This document shows, one piece after another, positions 16,669-63,532 of a stretch of DNA of 64,000 nucleotides. Origin of the DNA: an uncultured Actinomycetota bacterium (lineage in GTDB: Bacteria > Actinomycetota > Actinomycetes > S36-B12 > UBA10799); NCBI GenBank assembly GCA_963733395.1, contig CAVTCZ010000009.1, forward strand, positions 166,245 through 230,244. Reading direction: 5' to 3'. The notes below the pieces were generated by a model. It saw only the letters and a program-made list of their open reading frames with translations. It had not been told where the DNA came from and did no database searches. The stretch's first letter is position 1. Every line of letters starts with the position of its first letter. The position numbers and the translations under genes are program-made.

Positions 16669-17076
16669 TCAGGAGTCGCGGCCGTCCCGGCGGTTGCGGT
16701 CCTGCCAGCGCTGCTCGAACCTGGCCATGAAACCGGACTGACCCTTCGCGGGCTTCGGCGCCGCGGACGGCGCAGCTCCGGGCACCGAGTCGGCTGCCGC
16801 TTTCTTGGACGGTGCGTGACGCAGGCCCGAGATGACCAGGAACACCGATGCCAGCATCACGATGAATCCGAAGACGCCGAGCGGGGGAAGACTGGCCGAG
16901 ACACCCGCCAGCAGTAGTGCCATGCCGACGAGGGCTCCGATGACGCCGCCCACGACCCGTCGGCGATCGGCCCCGGACGAACCGTGTCGCAAGGACGTGG
17001 CGAACTTCGGATCCTCGGCCATGAGGGCCCGTTCCATCTGCTCGAGCAGTCGCTGCTCATGCTCTGAGAGAGGCAC
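16669..17076 (-). CDS. DUF3040-type small membrane protein (Rv2169c-like)
   Basis: GTG 17074-17076 is preceded by GGAGGGAAGG. (V)PLSEHEQRLLEQMERALMAEDPKFATSL is followed by a TM segment, the typical DUF3040 layout. Confidence 0.75.
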   Translation of the reverse strand: MPLSEHEQRLLEQMERALMAEDPKFATSLRHGSSGADRRRVVGGVIGALVGMALLLAGVSASLPPLGVFGFIVMLASVFLVISGLRHAPSKKAAADSVPGAAPSAAPKPAKGQSGFMARFEQRWQDRNRRDGRDS

Positions 17077-17176: not shown

Positions 17177-18412
17177 TCAACGTTCCTCCTCCGAATGACC
17201 CATGTCGAGCAGGCTGGCCGGGCGCACAACCCCGCGCCCGAATCTGGCCACCGCCCGGTCCACCGCCGTCTCCGCCTCCCGCCACCCAGCGTCCGGTTCG
17301 TCGAGGGCGATCTGGTGACTTGCGTCGTGCGCCGGGCGCAACTTCTCGACCCGTACCCCCACCAGTCGTAGCCGGGCGCGCTGCAGGCCGAGCGCCTGGT
17401 AGAGGTCCGCGGCCACGGCGTAGATATCGCGGCCGACGTCGGTTGCCTCTGGCAATGTCTTGGACCGGGTCAGCGTGGTGAAGTCCGCGAACCGGACCTT
17501 GATCGACACCGTCCGGCCCACCCAGCCAGCCGCCCGAAGTCGGGCCGCCACCGCATCGGACAGCCCCAACAACTGCCGCGCGATCACCTCCTGATCGTCG
17601 ACATCACCGGCGAAGGTGTGCTCCGAACCGATGCTTCGATCGGGAGTGGCAGAACTGACCTGGCGGCTGTCCCGGCCCCAGGCGAGTTCGGCCAGGTGGT
17701 CCCCGGCCGCAGGTCCCAGCGCCCGCCGCAACACCGGCCGCGGCAGATGGGCGACATCGGCCACGGTGCGCACCCCGAGACTGTGCAGTTGCTCCTCCGT
17801 TCGCGGTCCGACGCCCCACAGGGCACCGACCGGCAGCGGGTGCAGGAAGGCCACGATCGAATCCGCCGGGATCAGCAGCATCCCATCCGGCTTGGCGTGG
17901 GCGCTGGCCACCTTGGCGACGAACTTGTTCGGTGCCCCGCCCACCGAGCAGGTGATCCCCTGCTCGTCGTGGACCCGCGCCCGCAGCAGTTCGCCGATGG
18001 CGGCGGGGGTGCCGAACTGCCGGATGGCCCCGGAGATGTCGAGGAACGCCTCATCGAGGGACAACGGCTCCACAGCCGTGGTGATGGAGCCGAAGATCGC
18101 CATCACCCCCTCGCTGACCCGCGCGTAGTGGCGATGGTCGGGCGCGATCACCGCCGCCTCAGGGCACAACCGACGGGCCCGTCCCATGGACATGGCCGCC
18201 CGGACTCCGAAGGCGCGGGCCTCGTAGGTGGCCGACAGCACCACGCCGCGGGAACCGGAACCGCCGACGATGACGGGCTTGCCCCGAAGCATGGGGCGGC
18301 TGAGCAACTCCACGGAGGCGTAGAACGCGTCCATGTCCACATGCAGGATCGTGCATGTGGAATCGTCGCGCGGCGCTGGGAAATCCAGCTTGCCGCTCTC
18401 GCGTCTGCTCAT
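17177..18412 (-). CDS. dinB: DNA polymerase IV (Y-family), catalytic residues intact
   Basis: 411-aa ORF with ILHVDMDAFYASVE and PLSLDEAFLDIS motifs (catalytic Asp/Glu present). Lies 15 bp downstream of the dnaE2-type gene. Confidence 0.9.
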   Translation of the reverse strand: MSRRESGKLDFPAPRDDSTCTILHVDMDAFYASVELLSRPMLRGKPVIVGGSGSRGVVLSATYEARAFGVRAAMSMGRARRLCPEAAVIAPDHRHYARVSEGVMAIFGSITTAVEPLSLDEAFLDISGAIRQFGTPAAIGELLRARVHDEQGITCSVGGAPNKFVAKVASAHAKPDGMLLIPADSIVAFLHPLPVGALWGVGPRTEEQLHSLGVRTVADVAHLPRPVLRRALGPAAGDHLAELAWGRDSRQVSSATPDRSIGSEHTFAGDVDDQEVIARQLLGLSDAVAARLRAAGWVGRTVSIKVRFADFTTLTRSKTLPEATDVGRDIYAVAADLYQALGLQRARLRLVGVRVEKLRPAHDASHQIALDEPDAGWREAETAVDRAVARFGRGVVRPASLLDMGHSEEER

Positions 18413-18427
18413 CGATGTCCTCCTCCC

Positions 18428-21400
18428 CTAGCCTGCACTGCCCGGACTGGAGTGCCACAGCTTCGGCGGCCGTTTCGACGACGATCCCGCCGGCCGGGTG
18501 TCCGCGTACGGCGACTGCCGGAACCCACTGGCATGGACCAGCACCCTGCGCACAGCCGGGTCCGAGGTACCGGTGTCCTGCGTCGGATCCTCCATCCGGT
18601 CCGGTCCGGCCAGCATGTCCACCGGCGTGTTGATGATCTCGTACACCCCGGCCACGCCCTTGCGTCTCCATGCCGCGTGCAGATCCGGCAGGGACCAGCA
18701 CCCGGTGGCCCGCACCGAGATCCCCCGTCGGCCGGTCCTGCGGATCACACCGGTGGCCAGCAACAGCCAGGAGTGGAACACCGTGTGGGCGTAGGGGCCC
18801 TGAGCGTCCTCGAAGAACGTCAGGTCGATCGGTCCGGTGGAGTCGTCCAGCGACAAGAAGATGACCCGTCGCCCGCTGCGGATCGGCGGGGTCTGGGTCG
18901 CCACCTTGATGCCGGCCACCAGGACCTGCGCCTGCGAGCGGTGGGCCAGCAGATCCTTGGACCGCACCACACCGAGTTCGGTGAACATCTGCTCGTAGAA
19001 CGAGATGGCATGCCGGGTCACATCGAGGCCGAGGATCTCCACTTCCGCCTCCACCCGATCGGCCGCGGTCATCTCGGGCAAGCCGCTGGGCGGCTCGGGC
19101 TCGGACAACGGCAGGACCAACTGGGCGGGGCCTGCGGCGTACACCTTCGGCGCCTGTGATTGCGCAGCCACCTGCTCGGCGAGCCCGGTACCGCCCACCT
19201 GTTGCTTGGCGTTGCGCCGGACCCGGCGCCGACCCCCGGACCGGTGAAGATCCGCGATCTGCAGCAGCAGGTCGCGGCGGGTCACGTGACCGATGCGGCG
19301 CGCCCCGGTGATGTCGTACATCGTGTCGAATCCGCCGGCGCGCACCAACCGCTCCACGACCGGCCGGGACACCGGCGTGCGCGACCAGAAATCGGCGAGG
19401 TCCACGAACGGCTGGGACACCTCGATCTGACGGATCTCCACGTCGTTGATCCCCTTCACATCCGCCAGCGACAGCCGGATGCCATAGGTGTCCGCCACCT
19501 TCTCCACCCGGTACTGTCCGCTGGATTTGTTCACGTCCAGCGGCAGCACCACAACCCCGCTGTTGCGGGCCTCGTCGAGGATCAACCGCTTCGGGTACAT
19601 CCCCGGGTCATGGGTGAGCACCCCGGCCAGGAACGCCGCCGGGTGGTGTCGCTTGAGCCAGGCGGAGTGGTAGGTCGGCAGCGCGAAGGCCGCGGCATGA
19701 GCCTTGCAGAACCCGAAACTGGCGAAGGCCCGCAACACCTCCCAGACCTTCTCGACGGTTGCCAGGTCGTAGCCCTTCTTCAGCGCCTGCGGGATGAACC
19801 AGGTCCGGACCTGGATCTGTCCATCCGGGGTGCCGAGTTGCCGGCGGACCTCGTCGGCCTCAGCCAGGGAACACCCGCTCATGACAGACACCAGCCGCAA
19901 CACCTGCTCGTGGAACACCACCACCCCATGGGTCTCCCGCAGCGCGGGTTCCAGATCGGGGTGCAGGTGCAGCGGCTCCCGCCAGCCGTGCCGGGCGGAC
20001 AGGAACGGCGTGATCATGTCGCTCTTCACCGGCCCGGGCCGGAACAGCGAGATGTCGATGATCAGGTCGTTGAAGTCGCGCGGGCCGAACTTGCCGATCA
20101 GCTCCCGCTGCCCCGGCGACTCGATCTGGAAGCAGCCGAGCGTCTTGGCCTTCTGAATGAGGTCGAAGGTGTCCTGATCGTCGAACGGCAGGTCGTCGAG
20201 GTCGACCTCGACGCCGTCCACCCGGCGCACCTCAGTCACCGCATGGGCCATCGCCGACTGCATGCGGATGCCCAGCACGTCGAGCTTCAGGAAACCCATC
20301 GCCTCCACGTCGTCCTTGTCGAAGTGACTCATCGGGAAGCCCATCCAGCTGGCCTCCACCGGGGTCCGGTCCAGCAACGAGGAGTCCGACAGCAGCACGC
20401 CGCAGGGGTGCAGGGCGATGTGCCGGGGCAGACCGTCGAGCGCCTCCACGAAGTGCAGGAAGCCGTCCAGCATCCCGCGGTCGGCGAGTTTGCCCACCAC
20501 CGAGGTGCGCACCTCGGGCAGTTCGGCCACCGCCGCCCGGGCATCGCGGGCACGGATGTGTGGGAAGGCCTTGGCGAAGTCGTCGATCTCGCCGGCCGGG
20601 AAGCCCAGTGCCGCCCCCACATCGCGAATCGCGTGTCGCACCTTGTAGGTGTCGCGCATGCTCACACAGGCGCTGCGGTGCGCCCCGAACCGTTCCACGA
20701 TCCGCCGGTAGATATCTGTGCGGCGCGCCGACTCGACGTCGATGTCGATGTCCGGCAGCGCCCGCCGCAGCGGGGACAGGAACCGCTCCATGAGCAGGTC
20801 GTGGCGGATGGGGTCCACCCCGGAGATGCCCAACAGGTAGTTCACGACACTGCCGGCCCCGGATCCCCGCGCGGCCACCCGCACCCGCATCGCGCGGATC
20901 AGGTCCACCACCTCCGCAACCGTGAGGAAGTATCCGGCGAAACCGAGGGTGGCGATGACACCGAGTTCGTCGTCGAGGCGCTGCCGGGCGGGCGCCACCT
21001 CCCGGGGCAGGAACCTCGTGTGCAACGCGGCCTCACAGCGGGCCCGCAGCAGGGCATCGGCGCGCACCGCCTCGACCCGGCGCTGGGCATGGCGGTGGCG
21101 GCGGGCGGCGTACCCGACCATCGCGGGTCCGGTGGGTTCGGCCGGCGGCCTGCCCGACAACAGGACATCGAGTTCCGGGACGTGGATGTCCCCGATGCCG
21201 AAATCCGCCACCGGGTCCAGCACACACTCCCCGGCCAGGTCGGCGGTCACCCCGAGCAGCCGGCCGGCCTCGGATCCCGCGACCTGTTCGGCGATGCCCT
21301 GCATATGACTGGCCGGCGCCAGGAAACCGCCGGAGTTCTCCCGGTCGAGATGCCGGGAGTCCAGCGGCACCAGCCGCCGGATGGCATCCAGCAGGTCCGC

Positions 21401-22102
21401 GGTCGACGCCTGCCGGGGATGGACGTACCGTGCCGCGTTGGTCAGCACCGCCGGGACGCCACGCTCGCGGGCGTAGGTCCACATCCGGCGCGCCATCGCG
21501 GTGGACAGGTCCGGTCCGGGCCGGTCCTCCCCGATCCCGCGGGGGGCGGTGCGGTGGTTCACGATCTCGAGGTACACCCGGTTGCCCGCCACCTGCCGCC
21601 AGCGGTCCAGCAACCGGTCGGCAAGGTCGAACCGGTGCCGACTGATGGCCCGACCCACCTGCGAGTCGGGACCCAGCAACACCCGCAGATCTCCGGGCAC
21701 CACGAACTCCTCGAGCAGACCCCAGTCCACCGTGGGGTTGCCTCGCTCCCCAGCGGTGTGGGCGGCCGATACCAGCCGGCTCAACGCCGACCAGCCCCTG
21801 CCGCCGGAAGCCAGCAGCACCATGCGCGGATGCCGCAGGTCACGCCAGGCGCCACCCCGGGTGGGGGTGCGCGCCGCTACCGGCGGGGCATCGGGGCGCT
21901 GGGCCAGGTCCGAGCCGAGGATGCCGTCGATGCCGTGTTCCATGCAGGCCTGCATGAACCGGACCGCGCCGTACAACCCGTCCCGGTCGGTCAGCGCGAT
22001 AGCCGGTTGGTCCAACTCCACGGCCCGCTGCACCACCTCCTGCGGGGCGCACACACCGTGCCGCAGGGAGTAGTAGGAGGCGACGTGGAGATGACTGAAC
22101 AT
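18428..22102 (-). CDS. dnaE2: Error-prone DNA polymerase III alpha-type subunit (DnaE2-like)
   Basis: 1224-aa ORF. The PHP N-terminus HLHVASYYSLRHG...LTDRDGLYGAVRF is DnaE2-like rather than DnaE1-like. It has the PDIDIDVE palm motif. It sits in an SOS-box-preceded operon with dinB. Confidence 0.85.
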   Translation of the reverse strand: MFSHLHVASYYSLRHGVCAPQEVVQRAVELDQPAIALTDRDGLYGAVRFMQACMEHGIDGILGSDLAQRPDAPPVAARTPTRGGAWRDLRHPRMVLLASGGRGWSALSRLVSAAHTAGERGNPTVDWGLLEEFVVPGDLRVLLGPDSQVGRAISRHRFDLADRLLDRWRQVAGNRVYLEIVNHRTAPRGIGEDRPGPDLSTAMARRMWTYARERGVPAVLTNAARYVHPRQASTADLLDAIRRLVPLDSRHLDRENSGGFLAPASHMQGIAEQVAGSEAGRLLGVTADLAGECVLDPVADFGIGDIHVPELDVLLSGRPPAEPTGPAMVGYAARRHRHAQRRVEAVRADALLRARCEAALHTRFLPREVAPARQRLDDELGVIATLGFAGYFLTVAEVVDLIRAMRVRVAARGSGAGSVVNYLLGISGVDPIRHDLLMERFLSPLRRALPDIDIDVESARRTDIYRRIVERFGAHRSACVSMRDTYKVRHAIRDVGAALGFPAGEIDDFAKAFPHIRARDARAAVAELPEVRTSVVGKLADRGMLDGFLHFVEALDGLPRHIALHPCGVLLSDSSLLDRTPVEASWMGFPMSHFDKDDVEAMGFLKLDVLGIRMQSAMAHAVTEVRRVDGVEVDLDDLPFDDQDTFDLIQKAKTLGCFQIESPGQRELIGKFGPRDFNDLIIDISLFRPGPVKSDMITPFLSARHGWREPLHLHPDLEPALRETHGVVVFHEQVLRLVSVMSGCSLAEADEVRRQLGTPDGQIQVRTWFIPQALKKGYDLATVEKVWEVLRAFASFGFCKAHAAAFALPTYHSAWLKRHHPAAFLAGVLTHDPGMYPKRLILDEARNSGVVVLPLDVNKSSGQYRVEKVADTYGIRLSLADVKGINDVEIRQIEVSQPFVDLADFWSRTPVSRPVVERLVRAGGFDTMYDITGARRIGHVTRRDLLLQIADLHRSGGRRRVRRNAKQQVGGTGLAEQVAAQSQAPKVYAAGPAQLVLPLSEPEPPSGLPEMTAADRVEAEVEILGLDVTRHAISFYEQMFTELGVVRSKDLLAHRSQAQVLVAGIKVATQTPPIRSGRRVIFLSLDDSTGPIDLTFFEDAQGPYAHTVFHSWLLLATGVIRRTGRRGISVRATGCWSLPDLHAAWRRKGVAGVYEIINTPVDMLAGPDRMEDPTQDTGTSDPAVRRVLVHASGFRQSPYADTRPAGSSSKRPPKLWHSSPGSAG

Positions 22103-22105
22103 CGA

Positions 22106-22507
22106 CTATCCCGCAGTCGACCAGGAGGGGATCGGCAGTCCCACCCCGAGGATCGCGGCGATCTGCTCGAGGAACGCCTCAGCATCGCGCACGAGGTCGT
22201 CGGCCTGCCGCTGGGTCACATGTTCCCGGCCGATCTCCACGAAGATGCGGCGACGGCCGATCGCGTCGAAGTAGGCACACCACTCCCCCAACTCGGGGGC
22301 GATCGTCGGCACCATCTGCCAGACGCTGCGGATGCGCGACGACCGGGTCGGCTTGGCCCGCGTGGCCAGCAACGCCGCGCCCGCCCGCAGCGCCGCCACG
22401 TGCGCGGCCACGTAGCGGTCGGCGGGAGCGGTCGCCTGATAGGCGTCGTCGAGGGCGATCAGCGCGGTGCGCAGCAGATCTTTGCCGGCATGGGTCAGAG
22501 CAGCCAT
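22106..22507 (-). CDS. Small all-helical HEPN-like protein (resembles proteins annotated as SAV_6107-family HEPN)
   Basis: 133-aa ORF ending 3 bp before the dnaE2 start. It has an R-x4-H motif (RYVAAH, aa 31-36) and Ala/Leu-rich helices. The family assignment is from memory of similar annotations, not from a search. Confidence 0.6.
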   Translation of the reverse strand: MAALTHAGKDLLRTALIALDDAYQATAPADRYVAAHVAALRAGAALLATRAKPTRSSRIRSVWQMVPTIAPELGEWCAYFDAIGRRRIFVEIGREHVTQRQADDLVRDAEAFLEQIAAILGVGLPIPSWSTAG

Positions 22508-22519
22508 TGCAGTGTCCTC

Positions 22520-22801
22520 TCAGTCGAAGGTCCGCAGCAGGTACCACTGCCCCGCTGCCGGGTCGAAGCTCAAGTCGTAGACGCCACGCGCCGTGCATCG
22601 ACCGGCGGATGCCTCCACCCGCCAGGTCTGCAGGTCGCACCCGGTGGGGGTCGCACTGACGTCCTTCCACCACACCGCGGACTTGTCCCACTGCTGCAAC
22701 ACGTGATCCACCCGGTACAACCGGTCACGCCAGATGAACTGCTCGGGGGACCCGCCCCCGGCACATTTGACGTCGACGGCCCGGTCATAGGAACGACTCA
22801 T
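22520..22801 (-). CDS. Small Trp-rich protein (DUF6504-like), first gene of the damage-inducible operon
   Basis: ATG 22799-22801 is preceded by GGGAGGTG. MSRSYDRAVDVKC...FIWRDRLYRVDHVLQQW...VWWKDV...TWRVEASAG...GVYDLSFDPAAGQWYLLRTFD. The track start (GTG 22861) lies upstream of the predicted promoter, so I trimmed it. Confidence 0.65.
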   Translation of the reverse strand: MSRSYDRAVDVKCAGGGSPEQFIWRDRLYRVDHVLQQWDKSAVWWKDVSATPTGCDLQTWRVEASAGRCTARGVYDLSFDPAAGQWYLLRTFD

Positions 22802-22825
22802 GAAGCACCTCCCGTTCGTCGTGGA

Positions 22826-22841
22826 TCGAACTTTTGTTCGA
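22826..22841. promoter_or_regulatory. LexA (SOS) box, perfect actinobacterial consensus
   Basis: TCGAACTTTTGTTCGA matches TCGAAC-N4-GTTCGA exactly. It lies 25 nt upstream of the ATG at 22801 and overlaps the predicted -10 element. Confidence 0.85.
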
Positions 22842-22860
22842 TTACAGTCGAACACTGACA
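22839..22860 (-). promoter_or_regulatory. RecA-NDp / PafBC-type DNA-damage promoter motif
   Basis: The minus strand reads gTGTCAGTG-ttcgactg-TAATCG, versus the mycobacterial motif tTGTCRgtg-N8-TAnnnT. All positions match except the last T. Confidence 0.6.
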
Positions 22861-22881
22861 CAGGGGTACGTCAAGAGATTT

Positions 22882-22897
22882 TCGAACATATGTTCGC
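22882..22897. promoter_or_regulatory. Second LexA box (one mismatch)
   Basis: TCGAACATATGTTCGC, located in the divergent region between the mutasome-like operon and the MFS gene. Confidence 0.75.
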
Positions 22898-38459: not shown

Positions 38460-40028
38460 CTACCGCGCGATGACCATCCGGTCGAAGCGCGCCTGCGACG
38501 GCCGGTCGTCGGGCACCAACCCGCGGTCCTCGGAATCCCCGAGCAGCAGCACCCGCTCCCGTGGCGATGCCCACACGATGATGGCCAGCAACCCGGCGAC
38601 GAACAGCAGGCCGAGGCCGTCCCCGAACTCGAACAGGGCATCGCTGGTGGCACTTGTACCCGCGACCCCGTGCAACGTGAGCACTGCGGTCAGCAGCAAC
38701 GTCGTATGCAGCCAGCGCGCGGCCATGCCGGCGGCAGCCAGCAGGGGCAACGACCACAACAGGTACCAGGGCTGCACGACCGGGCCGAGCACGACGACGG
38801 TCAGCAGTGCCATCCCGGCACCCCGGACTGCGGAGCGGCCTCGGGGCTTGAACACCAACCACGCCAGAATGCCCACAGCCAGCAGCGTGGCGATCCCCCG
38901 GAACACGGCGACGGCCACGTCCATGTGATCGCCCAGTCCCACTGCCCGGATCAGTCCACTGACGATCATGCCCGCGGCCGTGGGTGGGGACAGCCAGGTG
39001 CGGATGGCCCCGGGAGTCGACAGCGCTGCGATCCAGCCGAGGCCGGTACCCGAGACCATGCCCAGTCCCACCACCACCGCGACCGTGATCGCGCCGGAAG
39101 CGGCCCAATAGCGGATGCGCGCCCACCATCCGGCGTTGACCCCGGCCCAGATGAGCCCGATGAACGGCAGCGCCACCAGGGCGATGGGCTTGACGCTGAC
39201 GGCCAGTGCCAGGGCCAGGGTACCCGCGATCGGGTGGTAGTCGACGGCCCACAGCAAGCCGACCACGACGGCCGCGGCCATGAGCGCATCGTTGTGTGCA
39301 CCGGCGACGAAATGCATGAGCACCAACGGGTTCAGCACCGCCAGCCACAACGCCTTGGCCTCACTGATGCCGTGACGCTGGGCCAGCGCGGGGACAGCGA
39401 CGGCCAGGATGGCGACGGCCAGCAGCGCCCACAACCGGAACGCGATCGCCGCCCACACCGGGTGCGGGCCGACGAATTCGGCCACGCCTCGCTCGATGAG
39501 CAGGAACAGCGGTCCATACGGTGTCGGGGATTCCGCCCAGAGCGGGTCGGCTCCGTCGTTGAACCACCCGGATTCCGCCGCCACCCCCACGTCGTACGGG
39601 TTGAGCCCCTGGATGAGCAACTTGCCCTGTGTGAAGTAGGCGTAGGCGTCACGGCTGAACAACGGCGGCGTCACCACCAAGGGGGCGCACCAGGCGACCA
39701 GCGTCCACCACAGGGACTGCAGGTCGGTGACCCGGCCCCGCAGGACGTCGTACCCGAGTACCAGCCATGCCTGCAGCACGAGTGCCATACCGACGATCAC
39801 GCAGAACCGCGCCAGCGCCACTCCGACTCCCGGCGACCGCAGCGCCTCGACCACGGAGTTGCCGTACAGGGAGGTGTTGACCGGCAACCAGCCGACCCCC
39901 AGCGATCCGATCGCCACGATGATCGAACCGACCAGCCCGACCACCACGTAATGCACGAAGAACGAATGCTGCCGGGGGGCGTCGGTCGCCGGATCCACGC
40001 CGGCCTCCCCGTCGCTACCCTCACCCAT
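38460..40028 (-). CDS. mptA: Polyprenol-phosphate-mannose-dependent alpha-(1->6)-mannosyltransferase (MptA/MptB-like GT-C)
   Basis: 522-aa polytopic ORF with FSRDAYAYFTQGKLLIQGLNPYD near the N-terminus. It sits in the syntenic position of Rv2174. Confidence 0.65.
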   Translation of the reverse strand: MGEGSDGEAGVDPATDAPRQHSFFVHYVVVGLVGSIIVAIGSLGVGWLPVNTSLYGNSVVEALRSPGVGVALARFCVIVGMALVLQAWLVLGYDVLRGRVTDLQSLWWTLVAWCAPLVVTPPLFSRDAYAYFTQGKLLIQGLNPYDVGVAAESGWFNDGADPLWAESPTPYGPLFLLIERGVAEFVGPHPVWAAIAFRLWALLAVAILAVAVPALAQRHGISEAKALWLAVLNPLVLMHFVAGAHNDALMAAAVVVGLLWAVDYHPIAGTLALALAVSVKPIALVALPFIGLIWAGVNAGWWARIRYWAASGAITVAVVVGLGMVSGTGLGWIAALSTPGAIRTWLSPPTAAGMIVSGLIRAVGLGDHMDVAVAVFRGIATLLAVGILAWLVFKPRGRSAVRGAGMALLTVVVLGPVVQPWYLLWSLPLLAAAGMAARWLHTTLLLTAVLTLHGVAGTSATSDALFEFGDGLGLLFVAGLLAIIVWASPRERVLLLGDSEDRGLVPDDRPSQARFDRMVIAR

Positions 40029-61744: not shown

Positions 61745-61810
61745 TGGACCACCCTACGGGGCCGGGCATGATCACCGGAACGCCTCCCGACGGTGCGGCG
61801 TTGCCCAGAA

Positions 61811-63532
61811 ATGTCAGGACCTTCTCCTAGCGTCGGGAACGTGTCCGTCGCCCCTTGGCCGTTGCCGCGAGGTCCAGCCCAGCTGAATCTCGACTTCGAC
61901 GGCACCGCCCTGGCCGAGACCACGTTCTGCGTCGTCGATCTCGAAACCACCGGTGGCAGCCCCACCGACGGGCGGATCACCGAGATCGGGGCCGTCAAGG
62001 TCCGCGCCGGCGAGGTCCTCGGGGAGTTCCAGACGTTCGTCGATCCCGGGCGACCGATTCCACCGTTCATCACCGTGCTCACCGGCATCACCGGTCGCAT
62101 GGTGGCCGCCGCCCCGTCCGAGGACGTGGCAGTCCCCCTGCTGCTCGACTTCCTCGCCGGAAGTGTCTTCGTGGCCCACAACGCCCCCTACGACTCGGGC
62201 TTCCTGCGGGCCGCATGCGAGCGGCTCGGGATCGCGTGGCCGAACCCGCAGGTGATCGACACGGCCCGGCTCGCCCGTTCTTCGCTGGGTCGCGACGAGG
62301 TGGCCAACCACAAGCTGGCGACTCTCGCGGCCTTCTTCCGGGCCGAGGTCACACCCACCCACCGCGCACTCGATGATGCCCGCGCCACCGTCGACGTGCT
62401 GCACGGGCTGCTCGAGCGGCTCGGCGCCGTGGGCGTGTTGACCCTGGAGGAGTTGTCGGCATCGATGCGCAAAGTGCCGCATCAGCGCCGGGACAAGCGG
62501 CATCTGGCCGACCGCCTCCCGGAGGCCGCCGGGGTCTACACGTTCCGGGACTCCGACGACCGCCCGCTCTACGTGGGGGTCTCCGCTGATATCCGCCGAC
62601 GGGTGCGGTCCTACTTCACCAGCGCGGAGCAACGCCCCCGGATGACGGAGATGGTCGGCATCGCTGCCTCCGTCACGGCGATCGTCTGCGCGACGGATCT
62701 CGAGGCGAGGGTGCGGGAACTACGCCTGATCGCCGAATGGAAACCCCCCTACAACCGGCGTTCCCGGCATCCGGAGAAGAACGTCTGGCTGAAGTTGACC
62801 GACGAGGCCTTTCCGCGGCTGTCTGTGGTGCGGGCGGTGGCCGATGACGAGTCCCGCGGTTCGGCGTACCTGGGCCCGTTCCGTTCCCGCTCCGATGCGC
62901 AGGAGGCGATCGCCGCCCTCACGGAGGCGACGGGGTTGCGGGCTTGCACCCAGAAGCTGCGGCCCGGAATCAGCGCCCCCGATTGTGTGCTCGGGCAGAT
63001 CGGCAAGTGCCCGGCGCCCTGCTCGGGCCGGTTGACCCCGGAGCAGTACGCGCCGTCGGTGGCACAGGTCCGGCGCGCAGCGCTCGGCGATCCCGGCCCG
63101 GTGGACAGCGCCTTGCGCCAGCGGATGGCTGCCTTGTCGGAGCAACAGCGGTTCGAGCAGGCCGCCACCTGGCGCAACCGCCTGGAGGCAGCCCGCCACG
63201 GCATCGAGTCGGCGACACAGTTGCGGGCCTTCGGCCAGATCCCGGAGTTGGTCGCCGCCCGCAGCCGTTCCGGAGGCTGGGACATCCATGTCATCCGCCA
63301 CGGCCGGATGGCCGCGGCGGCGTTCTGCCCGGCCAACGCCGATGCCCGGGCGGTGGTGGAGACCGTGGTGCTGGGCGCGGAGCAGGTGCTGCCGCCTCCC
63401 CCGCCCACAACATCCGCGTTGATCGCCGAGAGCCGGATGCTCATGCGGTGGCTCGAGTCGGCCCGGCTGGTGCGGATCGAAGGGTCCTGGACCCTGCCAC
63501 TGCCGGGTCTCAGGCCCGCAACTCCCGGGTGA
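61811..63532 (+). CDS. DEDDh 3'-5' exonuclease domain fused to a GIY-YIG nuclease domain (Rv2191-like)
   Basis: Exo motifs VVDLETTG, FVAHNAPYDSGFL and HRALDDA, then GVYTFRDSDDRPLYVGVSADIRRRVRSYF (GIY-YIG). The start is uncertain (ATG 61811 or the track start 61793). Confidence 0.8.
   Translation: MSGPSPSVGNVSVAPWPLPRGPAQLNLDFDGTALAETTFCVVDLETTGGSPTDGRITEIGAVKVRAGEVLGEFQTFVDPGRPIPPFITVLTGITGRMVAAAPSEDVAVPLLLDFLAGSVFVAHNAPYDSGFLRAACERLGIAWPNPQVIDTARLARSSLGRDEVANHKLATLAAFFRAEVTPTHRALDDARATVDVLHGLLERLGAVGVLTLEELSASMRKVPHQRRDKRHLADRLPEAAGVYTFRDSDDRPLYVGVSADIRRRVRSYFTSAEQRPRMTEMVGIAASVTAIVCATDLEARVRELRLIAEWKPPYNRRSRHPEKNVWLKLTDEAFPRLSVVRAVADDESRGSAYLGPFRSRSDAQEAIAALTEATGLRACTQKLRPGISAPDCVLGQIGKCPAPCSGRLTPEQYAPSVAQVRRAALGDPGPVDSALRQRMAALSEQQRFEQAATWRNRLEAARHGIESATQLRAFGQIPELVAARSRSGGWDIHVIRHGRMAAAAFCPANADARAVVETVVLGAEQVLPPPPPTTSALIAESRMLMRWLESARLVRIEGSWTLPLPGLRPATPG

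Follow-up and report, generated by a model that had tools for sequence, protein, structure and literature searches.

Does a polymerase operon without recognizable imuA' and imuB genes encode a new kind of mutasome, or a known one whose parts are distributed differently? The question is raised by four genes on the minus strand of a 64-kb stretch of DNA (the window; 64,000 nucleotides, positions 166,245 to 230,244 of contig CAVTCZ010000009.1, assembly GCA_963733395.1) from an uncultured Actinomycetota bacterium, whose nearest named relatives are metagenome-assembled genomes labelled Candidatus Nanopelagicales. In the order of transcription they encode a DUF6504 protein (g1), a HEPN_SAV_6107 protein (g2, called HEPN for simplicity), a C-family polymerase (g3) and a Y-family polymerase (g4, called PolY). 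A first-pass annotation made from the sequence had read them as a functionally undescribed, damage-inducible module without any ImuB-like component. We arrive at a different overall picture: in this uncultured actinobacterium the locus is quite likely an operon under SOS control that encodes a DnaE2B mutasome with a split ImuB. At its core, the finding adds one member to a module that has already been described, so far from computation only, and the HEPN gene is the part of the operon that is undescribed in the open-access literature.

The four genes span positions 22801-17177 and are separated by gaps of 12, 3 and 15 nucleotides (nt; g1/g2, g2/g3 and g3/g4, respectively), in agreement with the co-directional arrangement first annotated. 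g1 (22801-22520, 93 residues) starts with an ATG that has a GGGAGG ribosome-binding site 6 nt on its 5' side; a mechanical open reading frame (ORF) starting from a GTG at 22861 would extend it to 113 residues, and the annotation of the 395-kb source contig, ENA ERZ25039459 contig_27632, uses the 93-residue start. It is followed on the same strand by g2 (22507-22106, 133 residues), g3 (22102-18428, 1224 residues) and g4 (18412-17177, 411 residues), with further ribosome-binding sites (GAGGA, GGGA and GGGAGGAGG) within or just 5' of the three gaps. Inside the operon, scans for sigma-70-like promoters and for terminator-like sites on the minus strand found none. The packing is tight enough for translational coupling, and the earlier view of one compact, LexA-box-fronted operon holds. 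Since the gene order is seen again in more than 100 independent loci, the arrangement is more than chance. Pfam assigned DUF6504 to g1 (E = 1e-15), HEPN_SAV_6107 to g2 (E = 6e-30), the PHP, DNA_pol3_alpha, finger, HhH and OB domains to g3 and the IMS and IMS_C domains to g4.

Whether the operon is free of ImuB depends on g1, a small protein with 6 Trp residues that matches Pfam PF20114 (DUF6504). The Mesorhizobium plasmid pMc1192 carries, between imuA and error-prone dnaE2, the gene of a 507-residue ImuB on which PF20114 matches residues 432-504 (27.6 bits, cut-off 24.2) beside the IMS domains, and the NCBI annotation pipeline names this ImuB "DUF6504 family protein". A hidden Markov model (HMM) of 179 free-standing homologues aligns to the same residues of the Mesorhizobium protein via a PxxFxWRG ... 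WW ... W signature. g1 is furthermore homologous over its full length (34% identity, E = 1e-14) to the 99-residue Tessaracoccus lapidicaptus protein VEP41449, whose sequence is listed as the "ImuB-C" subunit in a supplementary table of PMC12926913. Because of the Pfam match on a real ImuB, the NCBI name of that protein, the alignment of our own HMM and the homology to VEP41449, we equate DUF6504 with the C-terminal domain of ImuB and g1 with a free-standing copy of it. The AlphaFold2 model of g1 is all-beta with six strands (predicted local distance difference test, pLDDT, 77), and a fold search with this model against the PDB returned no match, which agrees with the description of ImuB-C as a beta-barrel of novel fold (PMC12926913). 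Comparisons of the DUF6504 alignment with single ImuB C-termini by hhalign were weak (probability 1-11%), an actinobacterial ImuB2 was detected neither by PF20114 nor by our own DUF6504 HMM, and searches of PDB sequences with g1 and g2 gave nothing meaningful. An exhaustive DUF6504 profile search yielded 1050 hits, of which the 150 listed matches were all free-standing and hence uninformative on fused ImuB. The first-pass statement that the operon holds no imuB-like gene has to be withdrawn for g1. The system is therefore not ImuB-free. Its ImuB is split in two: ImuB-C is a polypeptide of its own, and the Y-family scaffold with the clamp and RecA motifs is another.

The candidate scaffold is g4, which exceeds the cut-offs of both the Pfam (IMS, IMS_C) and the NCBIfam DNA polymerase IV models. 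Its catalytic carboxylates are in place (D26 and D28 in HVDMD, D120 and E121 in SLDE), as had been noted before. The C-terminus contains a match to the beta-clamp motif, QIALDE (residues 367-372, nt 17297-17314), followed by a helix resembling the N-terminus of RecA (RecA-NT), AETAVDRAVARFGRGVVRPASLL (residues 380-402, nt 17207-17275), of the type defined by Timinskas and Venclovas (PMC6511836). The C-terminal helix AETAVDRAVARFGRGVV aligns with the motif of T. lapidicaptus PolY and is similar to the RecA N-terminus ..QIEKxxGKGSVMRLG. Over the whole protein, g4 is 55% identical to the T. lapidicaptus PolY VEP41451 (E = 2e-141). Most of the related PolY C-termini that were printed show Q[LI]xL[GD]E and a ..RFG..V helix, with RFG counted in 37 of 44 unique ends. 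By its sequence, g4 is thus a catalytically intact Y-family polymerase of the PolY-core/DinB type, in which a clamp motif precedes a RecA-NT-like helix.

The partner polymerase g3 retains the PDIDID (residues 450-455) and LKLDVLG (residues 605-611) catalytic motifs, and beyond the OB fold no domain is detectable with Pfam. In NCBIfam it stays below the curated thresholds for DnaE1 as well as for canonical error-prone DnaE2. In pairwise comparisons its divergent PHP region was 44% identical to that of T. lapidicaptus DnaE2B, and identity was 43-45% to plasmid-borne Streptomyces copies, whose operons fit the published DnaE2B-DinB2 type, as against only 30% to an actinobacterial DnaE2A. The tail of g3 (residues 1185-1224; 18431-18550, minus strand) carries the motifs RRVLVHASGFRQSPYAD and KLWHSSPGSAG. 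Relatives share them as RRVLVHASGF[RK]QSPYAD followed, at the extreme end, by P[RS]KLWH[AS]SPGS[SA]G, and the rest of the tail is not conserved; the SPYA core was found in 45/68 and LWHxSxGS in 49/68 of the DnaE ORF ends of related loci, including the T. lapidicaptus type, which has no HEPN. Neither motif was found in two DnaE2A examples, and the Mesorhizobium DnaE2A ends in ..TRDFK, unlike g3. The two motifs are probably partner-binding peptides. On pairwise similarity and shared motifs, g3 is assigned as a DnaE2B with intact catalytic motifs.

The window was also searched for the missing components of the canonical system. Queries by tblastn with Mesorhizobium ImuA and a candidate Streptomyces ImuA' (assigned by gene position only and without a Pfam hit) detected no RecA-fold ImuA or ImuA' in the 64 kb; within the same limits no catalytically dead Y-family protein fused to ImuB-C was found, g4 being the only Y-family gene. 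The claim that ImuA' and ImuB are missing therefore stood in one sense, i.e. the operon and the window contain no full-length ImuA, ImuA' or ImuB. Such an arrangement is not new. Free-standing ImuB-C accompanied by DinB or DnaE2 was already noted in 2013 (PMC3765255), a paper of 2019 described variants that lack ImuA (PMC6511836) and the exact composition of DnaE2B, an apparently active PolY, standalone ImuB-C and RecA was described in 2026 (PMC12926913), contrary to the assumption that the module was functionally undescribed. The latter module was reported only from Actinobacteria whose genomes have neither imuA nor imuB, and its T. lapidicaptus representative (VEP41449/41450/41451) yielded a confident AlphaFold-Multimer tetramer (PMC12926913).

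The window operon encodes the same three proteins as the T. lapidicaptus module, in the same order and with the identities given above for ImuB-C, the PHP region of DnaE2B and PolY, and the two share an active PolY with a clamp motif and RecA-NT helix as well as the lack of ImuA and ImuB (within 64 kb for the window). They differ in that the window has HEPN_SAV_6107 between ImuB-C and DnaE2B and the T. lapidicaptus exemplar does not. With the canonical ImuA'-ImuB-DnaE2 mutasome of mycobacteria and Proteobacteria, the operon has in common the LexA-controlled cassette, a Y-family scaffold that supplies a beta-clamp motif and a RecA-NT-type helix and, by analogy, a DnaE2 that would be recruited via ImuB-C; the differences are that its Y-family protein is intact and separate from ImuB-C (93 residues, two genes upstream), that it has no RecA-like ImuA/ImuA' and that its polymerase is a DnaE2B, about 30% identical to a DnaE2A. 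The Streptomyces dnaE2-dinB2 operon represents an iPolY-DnaE2B-RecA module with a DinB2 reported to be catalytically inactive (PMC3273824). It resembles the window operon in placing a DnaE2B-type polymerase immediately before a Y-family gene but differs in lacking ImuB-C and HEPN: the Streptomyces plasmid DnaE2B-DinB2 operons that we checked had neither HEPN nor DUF6504, and Streptomyces has instead retained, at the ancestral DUF3040 locus, an orphan HEPN_SAV_6107. The window combines a DnaE2B-type polymerase, a free-standing ImuB-C and an apparently active PolY with a RecA-NT motif, and the operon very likely belongs to the DnaE2B-PolY-ImuB-C class under SOS control.

Regulation was addressed by searching the whole window for the LexA operator TCGAAC-N4-GTTCGA, allowing at most one mismatch. 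Exactly two matches were obtained, both 5' of g1, where 0.12 would be expected by chance; none of 100 shuffled sequences contained two or more. The proximal box TCGAACAAAAGTTCGA (22826..22841) is perfect, lies 25-40 nt 5' of the ATG of g1 and overlaps the -10 element, and the distal box GCGAACATATGTTCGA (22882..22897) has one mismatch. The window operon is therefore predicted to bind LexA at operators overlapping its promoter. The mycobacterial RecA-NDp promoter has the consensus TGTCRGTG-N8-TAnnnT. A promoter-like element of this RecA-NDp/PafBC type, TGTCAGTG-N8-TAATCG, is found at 22860-22839 on the minus strand, where it overlaps the perfect LexA box and agrees with the consensus save for the last -10 base, a G in place of T. 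Of the first-pass claim that LexA boxes and a RecA-NDp-type promoter precede the operon, the boxes were thus confirmed and the promoter turned out to be imperfect. Seven related loci, not counting the sibling contigs L001-L003, carry TGTC[AG]GTG-N8-TA with a full TAnnnT -10 element 29-32 nt 5' of the LexA box, compared with our own estimate of about 0.05 occurrences expected by chance over all upstream regions. Additional control of the window operon by PafBC is plausible, not secure. When the relatives were scored for LexA boxes (at most one mismatch, within 1 kb upstream), all 32 complete four-gene loci had one.

What, then, is the HEPN protein doing among these genes? Its AlphaFold2 model is a helical bundle (pLDDT 90, predicted template-modelling score 0.84), and the top Foldseek matches in the PDB were the HEPN domains 2hsb, 1wol and 3o10 (template-modelling scores 0.59-0.67), so that g2, a member of PF18726 (HEPN_SAV_6107), is modelled with the four-helix HEPN fold. 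PF18726 belongs to the Pfam clan of this superfamily, and the bundle is shared with HEPN-MNT toxin-antitoxin proteins, sacsin HEPN, AF_0298 and ST0689. g2 differs from them in lacking both the Rx4-6H motif of the last helix and an MNT partner, and its context is a LexA-controlled DNA-polymerase operon, not a toxin-antitoxin, defence or RNA-processing locus. The residues kept in every locus class, including orphans, are R31, Y32, H36, R41, W63, E72, E75, W76, F80, R87, G93, R100, D103, D104, R107 and F112, which we count as 16 polar or aromatic residues. A HEPN survey listed the SAV_6107 family as actinobacterial, without the Rx4-6H motif and without known context (PMC3710099), PMC12926913 and its supplements mention neither HEPN nor SAV_6107 nor DUF6504, and we found no paper in the open-access literature that joins HEPN with DnaE2. 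Separately, the tails of HEPN homologues often read LGL..HQP[VA]LP (37 of 131 unique tails against 2.4 in shuffles; L006-L169, e.g. L011, L083, L088 and L108), a sequence vaguely like the clamp-motif region of Propionibacteriaceae PolY (QQPALDEP). The window g2 ends in LGVGLPIPSWSTAG (22106-22150) without this tail; as it is also not a canonical clamp motif, its reading as a HEPN beta-clamp motif was dropped.

Scanning one genome per GTDB species with a HEPN profile yielded at least 534 relatives, and the best 80 loci were classified. They fit a common frame, [DUF6504]-HEPN-[DnaE2B]-[S-adenosylmethionine (SAM) methyltransferase]-[PolY]-DUF3040 ... mraZ. The full four-gene class, seen in Nanopelagicales, Intrasporangiaceae, Terrabacter, Kineosporia, Pseudokineococcus, Bifidobacterium, Actinomyces and others, comprised 35 loci and a further 5 truncated at the end of a contig, HEPN-PolY 12 loci (mainly Propionibacteriaceae), DUF6504-HEPN 7 loci (mainly Pseudonocardia), DUF6504-HEPN-PolY a single locus and HEPN alone 20 loci (mainly Streptomyces and Kitasatospora). 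The reverse view was obtained with a 10-sequence ImuB-C alignment as the query of a metagenome scan. Counting only loci with enough sequence, HEPN was located directly 3' of ImuB-C and before DnaE2B in 57 of 61 metagenome loci (about 93%), and also in all four long genome contigs that were looked up. One HEPN-less exception (L090, Ga0209347_1001332) encodes an ImuB-C with 100% identity to the T. lapidicaptus protein of the literature, with DnaE2B 15 nt after ImuB-C, which places the published exemplar in the HEPN-less minority. The exemplar is thus atypical for the family, and the HEPN-bearing window operon represents the majority form of the class. The distance from the HEPN stop codon to the start of DnaE, estimated by taking the site that aligns with DnaE residue 1 as the start, had a median of 38 nt and was at most 20 nt in 33 of 89 loci.

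Several loci have an additional gene. A class I SAM-dependent methyltransferase is encoded between DnaE2B and PolY in L086 (13134-14000), L088 (12989-13753) and L089 (12448-13194), all three annotated with Pfam, and many other loci show a DnaE-PolY gap of 0.8-1.5 kb, a size matching that gene; an ORF of methyltransferase-like size is also present between HEPN and DUF3040 in Streptomyces-type loci. The window has no methyltransferase gene, its polymerase genes being only 15 nt apart. In the sibling contig L002 (10406-14240; ENA ERZ25039503 contig_132469), DUF6504 and HEPN are 100% identical to those of the window, dnaE2 is fragmented and PolY is N-terminally shortened. This is either an error, from assembly or a frameshift, or a variant within the population whose polymerase has been inactivated.

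The neighbourhood survey proposed with the first-pass annotation thus shows both small genes to be conserved partners of polymerase genes. It also shows HEPN with PolY only, with DUF6504 only and alone, and missing from the published exemplar, and the notion of a factor dedicated to DnaE2 does not hold in that form. Its link to this operon is nonetheless strong. This distribution gives weight to the strongest rival explanation, in which HEPN is a syntenic bystander belonging to the DUF3040/mraZ neighbourhood or to some other process, alongside which the polymerase genes were inserted, and has no role in translesion synthesis. No other gene of the locus is as persistent as HEPN, which precedes DUF3040 in almost every complete locus, also where polymerase genes are absent; HEPN-less DnaE2B operons exist; orphan HEPNs conserve the same residues; and 12 of the 16 complete HEPN-alone loci have no good LexA box. 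On the other hand, in the ImuB-C-query loci HEPN is almost always internal, between ImuB-C and DnaE2B, and not at the edge of the operon; in the window, its stop codon is only 3 nt from the dnaE2 ATG. Moreover, a LexA box stands directly 5' of HEPN in 8 of 9 HEPN-PolY loci, from which DnaE2B and ImuB-C are lost, in all scorable DUF6504-HEPN pairs (2/2 complete, 5/5 truncated) and in the remaining 4 of the 16 complete HEPN-only loci. The LexA boxes kept across these locus types indicate that SOS control is ancestral to the locus and accompanies the HEPN gene even after the loss of DnaE2B, and such retention points to a DNA-damage function of HEPN's own. We regard the bystander explanation as unlikely.

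Considerably less probable is a second rival, an active SOS-induced ribonuclease or toxin-like effector that would slow translation or growth during bypass without being a structural subunit. The fold speaks for it, since most HEPN families are RNases (PMC3710099), as do the SOS control, an R31-x4-H36 in helix 2 that hardly varies and a ridge formed on the last helix by R100, D103, D104 and R107. That helix, however, reads RQADDLVRDAEAF and contains no His and hence no canonical Rx4-6H RNase motif, in line with the listing of the family as motif-less in the survey; a Tyr takes the place of H36 in most loci of the polymerase-less group to which those of Pseudonocardia belong; and the locus encodes no MNT or other antitoxin-like partner and gave no match to known defence-system models in PADLOC.

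We tentatively favour a role for HEPN as an accessory or regulatory subunit with a HEPN fold but no RNase activity, which would bind to ImuB-C, to PolY or to both and thereby modulate the assembly or activity of the complex. Contacts of this kind would explain why HEPN-ImuB-C and HEPN-PolY pairs survived the decay of the operon. As the HEPN stop codon is so close to the dnaE2 start, HEPN would be made in step with DnaE2B. Its role might be of the kind played elsewhere by UmuD', YolD or ImuA: as an adaptor it might replace the missing ImuA, or it might control when DnaE2B and PolY reach the clamp. E. coli Pol V (UmuD'2C-RecA-ATP) and B. subtilis YqjW-YqjX/YolD are likewise SOS-induced Y-family polymerases that bind RecA via a RecA-NT-like motif and have a small accessory subunit, but UmuD' and YolD are SH3-like beta proteins and neither system uses a C-family polymerase. 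We know of no report of a HEPN helical bundle as the accessory subunit of a Y-family polymerase. In its strongest form, which we put forward with similar caution, the proposal is that the actinobacterial DnaE2B mutasome has in HEPN_SAV_6107 an integral subunit or a regulator that has been overlooked and that the common machine has five parts, ImuB-C, HEPN, DnaE2B, PolY and RecA. HEPN is not indispensable to it, since a few lineages have lost HEPN.

Several observations weigh against the reading of the operon as an SOS-controlled split-ImuB mutasome with HEPN as a component. DnaE2B operons of the T. lapidicaptus and Nonomuraea types do without HEPN; in Nonomuraea gerenzanensis (L171, NZ_LT559118.1, 10.02 Mb) only DUF6504-DnaE2B is present, and neither PolY nor a LexA box was found within the 19.6 kb read. 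Conversely, Streptomyces and Kitasatospora have kept HEPN by itself, in most cases with no LexA box, so that HEPN is neither required by DnaE2B nor limited to it. All interactions are borrowed from published AlphaFold models of a homologous system without HEPN, and the absence of imuA and imuB as well as that of recA, lexA and pafBC refers to the 64 kb of the window. The RecA-NDp -10 element is imperfect in the window, and the motif is lacking upstream of the operon in the two closest species (L004 and L005), its seven carriers being more distant.

Of the two other readings of the whole operon, the one put forward at first was a new mutasome without an ImuB-like component, in which both small proteins are novel, dedicated DnaE2/DinB factors. 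The lack of full-length ImuA, ImuA' and ImuB and the conservation of both small genes beside the polymerases fit this reading, but DUF6504 corresponds to the ImuB C-terminal domain, g1 is homologous to a published ImuB-C subunit, which in our view refutes the idea for g1, and the module type is already in the literature; we consider it very improbable. The reading that g3 and g4 are a housekeeping pair, i.e. a second replicative DnaE and a DinB beside two unrelated hypothetical genes, can draw on the E-value of g3, which is marginally better for the NCBIfam DnaE1 equivalog than for the error-prone model (both scores being below cut-off), but is scarcely credible given the LexA boxes, the conservation of the operon structure across orders, the ImuB-C partner, the absence of Pfam domains past the OB fold, the DnaE2B-specific tail motifs and the DnaE2B identity of the closest relatives.

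For the split-ImuB mutasome, a working mechanism can be drawn from what has been modelled in the literature for modules of this type and for the mutasome of mycobacteria. DNA damage would activate RecA, leading to self-cleavage of LexA and derepression of the operon, to which PafBC may add activation. PolY would then dock on the beta clamp via QIALDE and on RecA via its C-terminal helix, thereby combining the jobs that are divided between ImuB and ImuA' in the canonical system, and ImuB-C would bind the PHP domain of DnaE2B to bring this polymerase into the complex. One or both polymerases could insert nucleotides opposite lesions and extend beyond them, giving rise to induced mutations.

The operon is sited in a conserved actinobacterial region, with mraZ/rsmH on one side and metF, a PASTA kinase and DAHP synthase on the other. 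A gene for a small DUF3040 protein (16669-17076, minus strand) lies 100 nt downstream of PolY, and the terminator scan found no terminator-like site between them. Among the 59 genome loci anchored on HEPN and complete at both ends, the DUF3040 gene followed the HEPN locus in all except L046, regardless of their polymerase content, and thus appears to be a constant syntenic neighbour of the HEPN locus. Elsewhere in the window, a 579-residue protein (61793-63532, plus strand) has an N-terminal DnaQ-like RNase_T exonuclease domain (residues 47-203), its remaining ~370 residues being without a Pfam match at E <= 1e-5, and a 522-residue ORF (38460-40028, minus strand) beside carotenoid-synthesis genes shows strong coding-type codon bias (GC content at third codon positions, GC3, 0.88) and matches no Pfam family at the same threshold.

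For the family, these data mean that the DnaE2B system free of ImuA and full-length ImuB usually has one more conserved, SOS-controlled protein, which was left out of the published models. If HEPN is a bystander, the locus is merely another member of the described module. Culturable carriers include Terrabacter, Intrasporangium, Kineosporia and Bifidobacterium breve. If HEPN is a true subunit, a component is missing from the structural and genetic models of such mutasomes, HEPN would be the first HEPN domain in translesion synthesis, and SOS-boxed HEPN genes without adjacent polymerases would be the mark of a wider role in the response to DNA damage.

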